From: a virus
Taxonomy: Duplodnaviria > Heunggongvirae > Uroviricota > Caudoviricetes
IMG/VR virus record: IMGVR_UViG_3300042256_000013
Location: 192,001 to 256,000 of that record
Length of the DNA: 64,000 bases
Strand: one strand, 5' to 3'
Part shown: in pieces, positions 1-64,000 of the stretch
Layout: the number at the start of each line of letters is the position of its first letter
How positions within the stretch are numbered: the first letter of the stretch is position 1
The notes under the pieces: generated by a model
Told to the model about the DNA's origin: nothing
The model's database searches: none
The model's input: the letters and a program-made list of their open reading frames with translations, nothing else
Program-made: the position numbers and the translations under genes

Positions 1-676
1 CACGAATCCCAACACGTTTCTTAGTACTTTTCATTGGTGCACCGGGATAAGCACTGAATACGTTATCTGAAGTATCCCCACGGATACATTTTTCAAATAA
101 AATGAAATCAGGATCAGGAATTGCTAATGCATTACCTTTCTTATCTTGTACCAATTCACCTTTAAGATCAAATATACCCTGAATAGTGTAAATTTGTTCC
201 TGAACAGGATTATACTGTTTAACATTGTGATTCAGAAGTTGCTGGAAGTCAGTATCAGTACTGAGGATGATGTGTTGATCTTCAGGATGAGTTTGAATCC
301 AACGGGCGATATAGTCATCTGCTTCACATTTAGAAGAACGAAGTAGAGTACTATTAGTTTTAGCGTCAACAAAATCAAGGAAGTCATTAATCATCTCGAA
401 CATTAGTTCTGATTCTTCTTTTTCTTCTTGAGTTCTTGTGCTTGCTTTATCGACACGGTTTTGTTTATAAAATGGATCATAATCTTTACGCCATGAACGA
501 CCTTCTGCACAAAATACAGCATGGTCAGCTTTAAAAAGATCATCCATCTTACGTAAACCGCTCAATGTGATATGTAGTGCTAATCCAACTTTAGTCCATA
601 TATCGGATGAACGTGAAGCCACGTTAATAGCACGGTGGAAACAGTTTTGTGTATCCACAAGTAGATATGTTTTCAT
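1..676 (-). CDS. rnh: RNase H / 5'-3' exonuclease (T4 rnh-like), truncated by window start
   Basis: Not in the ORF track. Manual translation from the ATG at 676 gives [16 protein letters not shown]...[23 protein letters not shown]...EADDYIARW...STDTDF...GDTSDNV, which are FEN/5'-nuclease motifs. Confidence 0.85.
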
Positions 677-710
677 ATATAGGAACTCCATTTTCCATAT
701 AATTTACTTC

Positions 711-739
711 ATTATACCACATTTTTATATGTGGTTCCA
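711..739 (-). promoter_or_regulatory. TGGAAC-N17-TATAAT promoter (extended -10 TGn)
   Basis: gttcca 734-739 and attata 711-716, upstream of rnh. One of 7 copies with identical spacing. Confidence 0.75.
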
Positions 740-814
740 TTTAAGAAATAAATAGTTGCATATAAACATTTTATTTGAATTTTTTACGTTATTAATAGTA
801 ACGAAAAGGATTTG

Positions 815-821
815 ATAAATA
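815..821 (+). promoter_or_regulatory. late promoter ATAAATA (T4 TATAAATA-like)
   Basis: Upstream of the structural gene at 870. The same motif precedes most structural genes. Confidence 0.55.
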
Positions 822-869
822 ACATTAAGCAGGTATTAAGCCTGCACCAAATTAACAAGGAGATTTCTA

Positions 870-1430
870 ATGAGTCTTAATTCTTTTGATCGTAACTATG
901 GTATGTCTGCTAATAGTCGCGAATTTTGGGGTGGTGATAACGGTTTCGTAACTGTAGTTATTACTCTACCAGTTGATGTAGAAATTGGTGTTTCTGCTGT
1001 AGCATTCGATGGTACTGAAGCTGGCGATAACGCTGCTCAAACTGCACTATCTGCTGCTGAAAAAAATCAATTCATCATCGCTCAAGCTCTTGCACAACGT
1101 GCAGTTCTAGTAACCACTTCTGCATTGTCAACTGATGTTGATCCTACTGCTGCTGGTTTCGCAACTGTTGGTGGAAACGTAATTGCTTTCGGTTCTGCTG
1201 GTACTCTTGCAGACGGTTCTTTCGGTATTACTTATATCGTTGAACGCCAAGATGTGTTTACTAAACAAGATGGCAAACCTGGTTCTACTTATGCACTAGT
1301 TGTTGATCCAACAACTGAAATTGCTACCAATCTAGCACAAGCTGGTGTATTCCAGAAGAAAGACGGTACTCCTGCTCTTGCTGCTGCTGTTGGTATCAAA
1401 GTGTTCAAAGCACTTCCAGTACTACTATAA
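870..1430 (+). CDS. putative virion structural protein (paralog of 1449..2105)
   Basis: Strong AAGGAG RBS, highly biased codons, Ala/Val-rich. Shares motifs with the next ORF. Confidence 0.55.
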   Translation: MSLNSFDRNYGMSANSREFWGGDNGFVTVVITLPVDVEIGVSAVAFDGTEAGDNAAQTALSAAEKNQFIIAQALAQRAVLVTTSALSTDVDPTAAGFATVGGNVIAFGSAGTLADGSFGITYIVERQDVFTKQDGKPGSTYALVVDPTTEIATNLAQAGVFQKKDGTPALAAAVGIKVFKALPVLL

Positions 1431-63010: not shown

Positions 63011-63025
63011 TCATAAGGAGATAAT

Positions 63026-63664
63026 ATGATTTACTTATCCGTTCTCAAGGACGAGAACGGATCTTGGTATATTGCCAAGGTCCTAACATCTACGATTAAC
63101 GTTCGTGGAAACGCAACCGGAATTACATATGGTAATATTATTGGTCTTGATTTAGCAACCCGTCTAATGGAAGGGTTCTGGACTCAAGAAGATATATATG
63201 AAAATACTGGCGAATTCATGCAATTCAAAGAAAAAGTTACTACTTTTGATGATGTAAATGGTGTTGTTACCAACACTTACATCTATGAATTAATGGATTT
63301 AGATGTAATTAAAACTGATCTCAGAGGTCGTGTTGACTCAAAACGTGATACAGTATATTTCGGTGGTTTTGAATTTAATGGTAAAACATTTTATTCAGGT
63401 ATAAGTAACCGTAGTAATATTCAACTAATGCTTCTATCATCTCTTGTAGATGAAACAAATTTCCCATCTGATCTAGTTTGGGATACAGTTGATGGTGAAA
63501 GAATCCCAATGGATTTAGCAACCTTCAAACTATTTGCAAAAGCATTAACTGATTTTACACGTACTTTGTTTATCACTGCTCGTTCAATTAAAGATGCTAT
63601 TGATGATGCTACAGATTTCGCTACCATTCGTGCAGCCGCTGCATGGAATGGCGAACTTCTATAA
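63026..63664 (+). CDS. DUF4376-like fibre assembly protein
   Basis: KRD....GGF.F.G..F.S...R.NI, W.T.DG...P and IDDA motifs, directly after the fibre gene. Confidence 0.65.
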   Translation: MIYLSVLKDENGSWYIAKVLTSTINVRGNATGITYGNIIGLDLATRLMEGFWTQEDIYENTGEFMQFKEKVTTFDDVNGVVTNTYIYELMDLDVIKTDLRGRVDSKRDTVYFGGFEFNGKTFYSGISNRSNIQLMLLSSLVDETNFPSDLVWDTVDGERIPMDLATFKLFAKALTDFTRTLFITARSIKDAIDDATDFATIRAAAAWNGELL

Positions 63665-63677
63665 TTTAATTAATATT

Positions 63678-63712
63678 AAAAAAGGCTAACTTATGTTGGC
63701 CTTTTGTTTTTT
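63678..63712 (+). terminator. intrinsic terminator
   Basis: aaaaggctaac-ttat-gttggcctttt. Confidence 0.75.
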
Positions 63713-63760
63713 GTACCCTATAATAAATACAGGATACAACCATTATCTGAGGAATTTTTA

Positions 63761-64000
63761 ATGAGTGCATATACTATAAAAGGTGCGGAAGGTGTTGTTA
63801 TAAATAGTACTTACTTTTTAGAACTACCAAAAGCCCCTACAAAACAAACAACCTACGCTGAACGTGCAGGTATGATTCGTTATAACTCAGAATGGAAAGC
63901 ATTTGAAGGTGTAATTGAATTCACTGATGGTTCACTAGATTATCGCCGTTTCGCACAACTTGATGAAAACGGTCAATTACAAACTTCCCAATTACCAGAT
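63761..64000 (+). CDS. structural/fibre protein, truncated by window end
   Basis: MSAYTIKG...LELP...GMIRYN...FEG. Late promoter at 63723 and GAGG RBS. Confidence 0.6.
   Translation, partial: MSAYTIKGAEGVVINSTYFLELPKAPTKQTTYAERAGMIRYNSEWKAFEGVIEFTDGSLDYRRFAQLDENGQLQTSQLPD

Follow-up and report, generated by a model that had tools for sequence, protein, structure and literature searches.

The stretch analysed here, a window of 64,000 nucleotides, comprises bases 192,001-256,000 of a 371,104-bp phage genome (IMG/VR record IMGVR_UViG_3300042256_000013), and its subject is the palindrome AGTACT, which is strongly over-represented in it. The window has a GC content of 35.6% and encodes a gp23-type capsid protein, a T4-type portal, a family-B DNA polymerase, gp46/gp47-like nuclease subunits, baseplate and lysozyme proteins, a ClpB-like ATPase and a virion protein of 3343 amino acids (aa). 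The records most similar to it are those of Xanthomonas phage XbC2 and Erwinia phage Kaldavass (88.8% DNA identity); the next relatives, GAP32, CBB, Serratia BF, Yersinia fHe-Yen9-04 and the E. coli Asteriusvirus phages, are Rak2-like jumbo phages. The phage sequence was present in eight DNA datasets (wastewater and bioreactor metagenomes, as contigs only), and no RNA dataset was listed.

Excess of AGTACT in the window and the genome

AGTACT occurs 146 times in the window, at dispersed positions (about 2.3 per kb, mean spacing 440 bp). A reading of the sequence alone had put the number at roughly 140-150 where about 20-25 would be expected, and the count bears it out: 100 dinucleotide-preserving shuffles of the window gave 21.1 ± 4.5 sites, with a maximum of 34. 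The expectations under Markov models of order 0, 1, 2 and 3 were 21.8, 21.0, 37.3 and 61.3. The order-4 expectation (126) came nearest to the observed number, but that model is circular, because the counts of AGTAC and GTACT are already inflated by the AGTACT sites. The whole genome carries 1087 sites against 104-125 expected, and AGTACT is the commonest hexamer both there and in the window, where the runner-up has 98 copies. The word is 7-10 fold above chance.

The excess is specific to the hexamer AGTACT and is a property neither of GTAC in general nor of codons. Among the 441 GTAC tetramers of the window, 146 lie in AGTACT; by comparison, there are 25-30 copies each of AGTACA, AGTACC and AGTACG, 16 of TGTACA and none of GGTACC or CGTACG. 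GTAC alone thus does not account for the excess. An amino-acid- and codon-preserving shuffle had been set beforehand as the test that could refute the excess. In our version synonymous codons were shuffled within each gene, which preserves every protein and the codon usage of each gene, and the excess survived: the genes of the window hold 138 sites against 36.3 ± 4.9 (maximum 49), and the coding DNA of the genome holds 976 against 253 ± 13, a 3.8-fold excess with a z-score of about 52. Under this null model the z-score of AGTACT is by far the highest among all 4096 hexamers.

The sites are found in every reading frame. In the window, 92 are read as AGT-ACT, 36 as xxA-GTA-CTx and 13 as xAG-TAC-Txx, and five are non-coding; the genome tally for the three frames is 490, 338 and 145. 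Density is higher in the non-coding DNA of the genome (4.1 per kb) than in the coding DNA (2.8 per kb). Where the protein sequence permits AGTACT, the word is present in 41-62% of the places: Ser-Thr is encoded by AGT-ACT in 61.8% of cases (14.8% expected), Val-Leu preceded by a codon ending in A carries the word in 55% (10% expected), and Lys, Gln or Glu followed by Tyr and a codon beginning with T carries it in 41% (6% expected). The pressure also reaches the protein sequence and alters amino-acid pairs, in that the dipeptides ST, VL, KY and QY are enriched 1.3-1.5 times genome-wide, whereas the reversed controls TS, LV, YK and YQ stand at about 1.0.

The preference extends to one base on either side of the word. 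Genome-wide, the base at -1 is C in 39%, A in 31%, T in 22% and G in 7% of the sites, and +1 mirrors -1. Within the window G stands at -1 in 5 of 146 sites and C at +1 in 10 of 146, so the preferred form is (C/A)AGTACT(G/T). The preference at -1 persists at third codon positions (C 37% versus 13% overall) and in non-coding DNA, and the flanks hold little information beyond ±1. This symmetric preference gives CAGTACTG as the best form of the word; the genome contains 170 copies of CAGTACTG and one copy of the reversed word. One-letter variants of AGTACT that retain GTAC are enriched 2-4 times, against 0.7-1.7 times for inner variants, which is what graded binding energy would give.

Outside the terminal repeat of the genome (see below), the scatter of the sites is Poisson-like, with a variance-to-mean ratio of 0.96 in 2-kb bins and a coefficient of variation of the gaps of 0.89, and the density is flat over gene deciles. 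No regular spacing or gene-relative position was detected in the 2-kb bins, the gaps or the gene deciles; peaks at 10 bp in the pairwise site distances stem from one tandem array. The Poisson-like, gene-uniform scatter suggests that density matters and position does not.

Individual sites and other features are listed in Table 1; the sites cited in the sequence-only reading all proved correct in coordinate and frame on re-check. The serine codons of the capsid gene are TCT (18), AGC (4), AGT (3), TCA (2) and TCC (1); AGT therefore makes up 3 of 28, and two of these three AGT codons fall within AGTACT sites. Genes of at least 900 nt that are free of AGTACT number four in the whole genome against 2.8 expected, for which chance is sufficient.

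Table 1. Positions of AGTACT sites, genes and other features (window coordinates unless another coordinate system is named).
Feature	Position	Strand	Remarks
AGT-ACT site (Ser-Thr)	11968..11973	-	in the gp23-type major capsid gene
Second capsid AGT-ACT site (Ser-Thr)	12133..12138	-	kept in GAP32, lost in Kaldavass (AACGCT)
gp23-type major capsid gene	11902-13131	-	Pfam Gp23, E 1e-91
xxA-GTA-CTx site, CCA-GTA-CTA (Pro-Val-Leu)	1418..1423	+	within open reading frame 870-1430
xAG-TAC-Txx site, AAG-TAC-TAT (Lys-Tyr-Tyr)	37793..37798	+	in the gene of the 3343-aa virion protein; gained in this lineage, both Kaldavass and GAP32 having AGTTCT
Two non-coding sites 12 bp apart (21506, 21518)	21506..21523		gap 21093-22055, no called open reading frame
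Third non-coding site	21650..21655		same gap 21093-22055, outside called open reading frames
Close site pair, 7 bp apart	1772..1784		from the position list
Further close AGTACT pairs	42205/42214, 61442/61451, 62309/62318		from the position list
Densest long gene of the window, gp46/SbcC-like recombination nuclease subunit	22553..24706	-	9 sites in 2154 nt, 4.2 per kb
Longest AGTACT-free gene of the window	13155..14279	-	1125 nt, 0 sites
Very long open reading frame	37399-47430		3343 aa; annotated in Kaldavass as a virion structural protein
Very long open reading frame	57848-63010		1720 aa
Two AP2/HNH-like paralogues (~207 aa)	genome 281651-282271, 120191-120817
Tandem array (AGTACTGGAT)x12	genome 19058-19173
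EDM2-type methyltransferase-like gene of provirus G006	G006 12420-13241 (L128 coordinates)	-	only long minus-strand early gene of G006

Conservation, turnover and methylation of the sites

When 48 kb of the window were aligned to Kaldavass (88.6% identity) and to GAP32 (80.3%), AGTACT proved to be retained more often than background. Retention to Kaldavass is 78.5% versus 53.2% for all hexamer positions (z of about 5), and retention to GAP32 is 44.4% versus 32.2%. The same holds for four-fold synonymous third positions: that of the Thr codon ACT is kept in 88% inside sites and 69% elsewhere (p = 0.003), and that of the Val codon GTA in 97% and 76%, respectively (p = 0.006). Meanwhile, individual sites come and go: over the aligned 48 kb the counts are 107, 115 and 94 in the three phages, with only 40 sites common to all, and the two tip branches show 16 and 18 gains versus 13 and 7 losses. 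The gains arose from AGTAGT, CGTACT, AGTACC, AGTACG, AGTTCT, ACTACT, AATATT and other precursors, by the substitutions G>C, C>A, C>T, G>T and T>A as well as by double changes. The words that repair would convert are undepleted genome-wide (AGTATT, 221 versus 204 expected; AATACT, 263 versus 175).

Sites that are conserved, even at synonymous positions, and yet renewed through many mutation types speak for selection and not for repair bias; AGTACT is held by selection at the DNA level. A footprint of very-short-patch (Vsr)-type repair was rejected on the multidirectional gains and the undepleted neighbour words, and the sequence-directed repair bias that the sequence-only reading had offered as one explanation fails on these points and on the reshaped amino-acid pairs. 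A more general neutral account would ascribe the excess to biased mutation or repair, or see in it a side effect of composition, codon usage or palindrome avoidance, with no function. It can point to the many purged palindromes (see below), which narrow the sequence space, and to the order-4 expectation close to the observed count. However, apart from the circularity of that model, it leaves unexplained the excess under the codon-preserving shuffle, the reshaping of amino-acid pairs in one direction only, the over-conserved synonymous positions and the many mutation types behind the gains; in addition, host DNA, which is replicated in the same cells, shows no such effect, and sister phages of similar or lower GC content deplete the word. 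This account is very improbable and effectively refuted.

A methylase mark on AGTACT, also suggested from the sequence alone, does not agree with data from relatives. Comparison of native with amplified DNA by nanopore sequencing in the phages Kaldavass and Hallingskeid showed only GATC, CCWGG and, in Kaldavass, TGCAT to be modified, and three methyltransferases were predicted in Kaldavass and two in Hallingskeid (PMC11780129). The three motifs of Kaldavass match its three predicted methyltransferases, so that none is left for AGTACT. Both of these phages are saturated with the word (194 copies of CAGTACTG in Kaldavass, 1313 AGTACT in Hallingskeid), and a mark on about 1000 sites should be the most visible motif. 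We therefore reject a methylation mark on AGTACT for these relatives (PMC11780129). Neither does the word behave as a restriction-modification target of the ScaI type, being 7-10 fold enriched and, in relatives, unmethylated.

The general treatment of palindromes in this genome runs the other way. Avoidance of short palindromes is textbook behaviour for phages, and here GCGC is absent from the genome (290 expected), GGTACC and CGTACG are absent and CTGCAG, CAGCTG and CCATGG absent or nearly so from window and genome, and GATATC occurs twice in coding DNA where 100 would be expected. Such wholesale purging indicates intense restriction avoidance, and AGTACT opposes that trend: as the sequence-only reading had remarked, its enrichment reverses the usual avoidance. 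Some asymmetric words are also nearly absent, namely ACTGGG (1 versus 46) and CACAG(A) (3-4 versus about 57), a pattern suggestive of enzymes of type IIS or type III.

Distribution among phages, hosts and prophages

Every enterobacterial Rak2-like phage tested is saturated with AGTACT. Five genomes of the clade contain 130-256 copies of CAGTACTG versus 1-3 of the reversed word, and K64-1, whose capsid protein is 79% identical, has 940 AGTACT sites. The nearest non-enterobacterial relatives, in contrast, deplete the word or lack enrichment: Pseudomonas phage PA5oct (MK797984.1; capsid 69% identical) has 15 sites in 287 kb against 40 of the reversed-word control, Sinorhizobium phage Phosso (PV764938.1) has 15 in 469 kb against 132, and Salicola phage SCTP-2 has 88 against 246; PA5oct and Phosso show avoidance. 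These counts in sister lineages imply that AGTACT shifted from avoided to about 60 times denser. Other phages of Enterobacterales are unenriched, with 23 sites in T5, 20 in FelixO1, 16 in rV5, 13 in N4 and 5 in lambda, all below the controls. Host DNA contains 9 sites in 149 kb (about 1 per 16 kb), which is near the dinucleotide expectation and about 50 times rarer than in the phage. We found no literature linking enrichment of AGTACT or CAGTACTG to phages, and the CBB genome paper is silent on enrichment.

Two pattern scans of IMG/VR for word-rich contigs yielded a second group of carriers. Most non-jumbo matches of the first scan were coding tandem repeats and not dispersed sites; the scans also returned contigs of 25-41 kb with 3-5.6 AGTACT per kb, no GCGC and no GGTACC, and those checked are proviruses. 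One of them, G006 (40.8 kb), starts with 5.2 kb of host DNA (52% GC, AGTACT-free in its first 4 kb) that includes rimO, 99% identical to Escherichia sp. ESNIH1. This flank is followed by a large serine integrase, a siphovirus module (small and large terminase, portal, head protease and capsid, tape measure, J-type tail fibre) and a lysozyme. Under the synonymous shuffle, G006 has 69 sites against 21.6 ± 4.3, and the bases at -1 (C 41, A 26, T 11, G 8) show the same flank preference as in the jumbo phage. The hexamer z-scores of the two genomes correlate with r = 0.50, or 0.39 without the words containing GTAC, and both genomes are purged of GGTACC, CTGCAG, CCATGG, GCATGC and GCGC.

About 25 further contigs are relatives of G006 at the protein level (33-49% identity), a diversity which argues that the trait does not come from recent DNA exchange with the jumbo phage. 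The family appears as uncultured siphovirus prophages of about 31-36 kb that carry a large serine integrase and are integrated at the 3' end of the rimO gene of Enterobacteriaceae. No close relative of G006 was found in 185k species genomes by terminase, nor in E. coli genomes; among cultured phages there was no DNA match, and the best protein match was 32% (terminase). Most of its early genes match no family in Pfam or PHROGs. The minus-strand early gene listed in Table 1 resembles an EDM2-type methyltransferase dependent on S-adenosylmethionine (SAM), an assignment made with very high confidence from language-model features; it has no Pfam match and no homologue in the jumbo genome, from which its family, phrog_5172, is absent.

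One gene that occurs in both groups was considered as the reader of AGTACT. It encodes a protein of about 207 aa with an AP2-like DNA-binding segment after a degenerate HNH motif, matches the C-terminal half of phrog_953 and is present as two paralogues in the jumbo genome (Table 1). Homologues occur in at least six small-provirus contigs, several of them next to the integrase, and in GAP32, and none was found in Kaldavass, K64-1, vB_Ec-M-J or G006. Its absence from saturated genomes marks it as a mobile gene and not as the reader, and this sporadic candidate was rejected.

The distribution raises the question of whether the reader is a factor of the host, that is, SlmA or some other protein or defence system of Enterobacterales and their relatives which the phages exploit, titrate or evade. 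We think this unlikely, although several facts suit it. The trait tracks host order more than phage ancestry, as K64-1 and Hallingskeid on the one side and PA5oct, Phosso and SCTP-2 on the other illustrate, and the unrelated rimO prophages have the same word, flanks and avoided palindromes with no common core genes. Moreover, the densest sites lie in the terminal repeat, and a pre-existing reader would fit if this repeat enters first, as that of T5 does. SlmA occurs in enterobacteria and related orders. Its site in E. coli nucleoid occlusion, GTGAGTACTCAC, has AGTACT as its core, being identical in the central six bases, palindromic and dispersed over the chromosome (Tonthat et al. 2011, PMC3020112). 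However, SlmA requires G1, T2, A11, C12 and a purine at position 3 (PMC3020112), whereas the phage sites are without GT at -3/-2 and have G at -1 in only 7%. SlmA sites number some tens in the chromosome of E. coli, versus about 1000 AGTACT sites in the phage, which holds 32 half sites and not one full SlmA site in 371 kb. On these grounds SlmA was rejected as the reader of the bulk of the sites. A host factor in general also has to contend with T5, FelixO1, rV5, N4 and lambda, which share the hosts, are in some cases AT-rich and are unenriched, and we know of no host protein with specificity for AGTACT.

Early promoters, candidate readers and known systems

The density of AGTACT is highest in the first 20 kb of the genome (135 sites), which is packed with small minus-strand genes and corresponds to the direct terminal repeat of about 21-22 kb annotated in vB_Ec-M-J and CBB. 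The genome has 39 composite elements built as AGTAC-TTGNNN-N15-18-TANNNT; its first 20 kb hold 21 of them, nearly all oriented as the early genes are, and many have a second AGTACT 21 bp downstream, directly before the -10 hexamer. AGTAC is the commonest 5-mer preceding such sigma-70-like promoters. Only a small subset of the sites thus stands at a set distance from the -35 and -10 hexamers, and a promoter role leaves the roughly 1000 sites within genes unexplained. As a further observation on promoters, TAAATA (80 versus 234) and TATTTA (39 versus 207) are strongly avoided in the coding DNA of the genome, consistent with a need to keep a T4-type late promoter, TATAAATA, from arising by accident.

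The tandem array has one site per helical turn and is preceded by a conserved GACTTCAGGAACRGATATAGCGGAAGGGG block. By alignment it lies at the boundary of the terminal repeat annotated in CBB, and it adjoins the end of the XbC2 record; at the same position Kaldavass, CBB and XbC2 have one or two sites only. The sequence-only reading had also considered a packaging or recombination site, and for this part of it the single array at the terminal-repeat boundary is the one direct support. The same region bears on a further explanation, a signal read in RNA (AGUACU) by a ribonuclease or RNA-binding protein, with the palindromy incidental. A palindrome is present in the transcripts of either strand, so that orientation tests cannot discriminate here, but the word is most enriched outside coding DNA, promoter positions upstream of transcription starts included, its flanks are preferred with two-fold symmetry, only 1 in 64 hexamers is palindromic, and the array sits at the terminal-repeat boundary. 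We consider a signal in RNA extremely improbable.

The reading that we tentatively prefer, at somewhat less than an even chance, is that a symmetric protein with sequence specificity docks at the distributed AGTACT sites and marks or coats the DNA of the phage. We infer that such a protein reads the word and that its purpose is to mark or protect the DNA of the phage. The reader would be a small DNA-binding protein of two-fold symmetry, with GTAC as the core of its site and preferences at the four flanking positions. Selection keeps AGTACT, in its best form CAGTACTG and, judging by relatives, unmodified, at a roughly uniform density of about 1 per 340-440 bp over the whole chromosome; on the preferred reading, phage DNA would be densely occupied or tagged and host DNA would not. 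In the early region, that is, the terminal repeat of about 20 kb, AGTAC is fused to the -35 TTGCA of sigma-70-type early promoters, so that the same occupancy of AGTACT would also control early transcription.

Several points weigh against this preference. No reader protein for AGTACT was identified. About 1000 sites far exceed the needs of any known regulator, and a word of 6-8 bp is short for a typical helix-turn-helix dimer and more typical of enzymes. No core gene common to the jumbo phage and the rimO prophages was found: tblastn and phmmer returned only a lysozyme domain, and the one other item in common is the sporadic AP2/HNH-like gene; a single phage-encoded reader for both lineages is therefore not visible, which leaves room for a host-encoded or third-party reader, or for none. 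Finally, the nanopore evidence on modification comes from two relatives, concerns virion DNA only and uses motifs chosen by manual inspection.

The size of the word leads to a different candidate, in which AGTACT is the substrate site of an enzyme active during infection, such as a type II topoisomerase, a nickase, a primase at its start sites or an enzyme whose base modification is transient and lost before packaging. T4-type phages encode their own topoisomerase and primase. A palindrome of 6-8 bp with a strong GTAC core has the size and symmetry typical of enzyme sites, cutting as A|GTAC|T by a type II topoisomerase would leave the usual 4-base stagger, and an even density over the genome, on both strands, suits processes of replication or topology. 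On the other hand, we know of no primase or topoisomerase that needs a hexamer, the small prophages would need a host enzyme of the same specificity while host DNA and other phages are unenriched, and neither nicks nor modification at AGTACT were reported in the virion DNA of relatives (PMC11780129). An enzyme site is accordingly a doubtful candidate, distinctly unlikely in our view.

Among known systems, the closest in appearance is HIP1 (GCGATCGC) with the other cyanobacterial HIPs, which are likewise short palindromes over-represented many-fold in coding and non-coding DNA (PMC4390886, PMC5861425). AGTACT resembles them in its genome-wide excess under composition and Markov null models, in its presence in all frames and in non-coding DNA unexplained by protein sequence or codon usage, and in its conservation above background between related genomes; HIP1 sites are likewise conserved, with deviations skewed to the outer letters (Elhai 2015, PMC4390886; Xu, Lawrence & Durand 2018, PMC5861425). 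The differences are considerable. HIP1 belongs to a cellular genome, whereas AGTACT, an AT-rich word of 6-8 bp, belongs to a phage genome and is not a word of the host genome; the excess is 15-300 fold for HIP1 and 7-10 fold here; a periodicity of 10-90 kb was reported for HIP1, in contrast to the Poisson-like scatter at the 2-kb scale; and AGTACT is built into early promoters. Moreover, HIPs go with matching methyltransferases, whereas no cognate methylation of the word or its core accompanies AGTACT in Kaldavass and Hallingskeid. Of the HIP1-like self-mark or binding site proposed from the sequence alone, the selected iterated palindrome that runs against the usual avoidance thus stands, and a self-mark or a binding site for a protein remains the preferred interpretation of it.

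The HIP1 parallel could be taken further, to an orphan methyltransferase marking AGTACT or GTAC, with the mark or methyl-directed repair maintaining the word (Elhai 2015 model). The skew of one-letter deviations to the first and last letters, as for HIP1 (PMC4390886), would agree with this, as would the several methyltransferases encoded by jumbo phages and the methyltransferase-like gene of G006. We nevertheless hold such a system to be hardly probable: the nanopore data revealed only GATC, CCWGG and TGCAT (PMC11780129), the gene of G006 is without a homologue in the jumbo genome, AGTATT and AATACT are undepleted, and gains come by many substitution types.

Chi (GCTGGTGG, RecBCD), the DUS/USS uptake sequences and KOPS (FtsK) are over-represented words read by known machines. 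In these words, too, density and not exact position carries the function, and they separate kinds of DNA. They are, however, asymmetric and strand-biased, are read directionally by a translocating machine and mark the cell, whereas AGTACT is palindromic, has symmetric flanks and marks the virus. The E. coli Chi word itself has 25 copies in the jumbo genome, on both strands, versus 2.6-11 expected depending on Markov order, and none in the G006 prophage. A nick-associated motif, WACTRTGAC, was described lineage-wide in Pseudomonas phage Rembedalsseter and 60 relatives (PMC11780129). It is similar as a short word enriched across a phage lineage and tied to the physical state of virion DNA, but it has 13 sites per genome, is asymmetric and is linked to single-strand breaks, against about 1000 palindromic AGTACT sites with no nicks or modification reported.

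The same word is present in unrelated prophages, avoided by non-enterobacterial sister phages and unenriched in T5, FelixO1, rV5, N4 and lambda, which suggests that the reader is probably a discrete system. In a version that we regard as improbable, AGTACT would be an identity tag by which a jumbo-phage system tells its own DNA from that of the host, and the rimO prophages would have copied the tag and be treated as phage DNA during jumbo infection. If this were true, the tag might, for example, spare DNA from degradation or direct transcription, and the case would be one of sequence-level mimicry between unrelated viruses. More generally, a palindrome pushed to about 1000 unmethylated copies at a cost to proteins implies a genome-wide DNA signal that is undescribed for viruses in the literature we could search. 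It would offer a handle on how unmodified jumbo-phage DNA is distinguished from host DNA and could illuminate the 30-year-old question of HIP1. It also means that phages saturated with AGTACT are exceptionally vulnerable to any AGTACT-specific nuclease.

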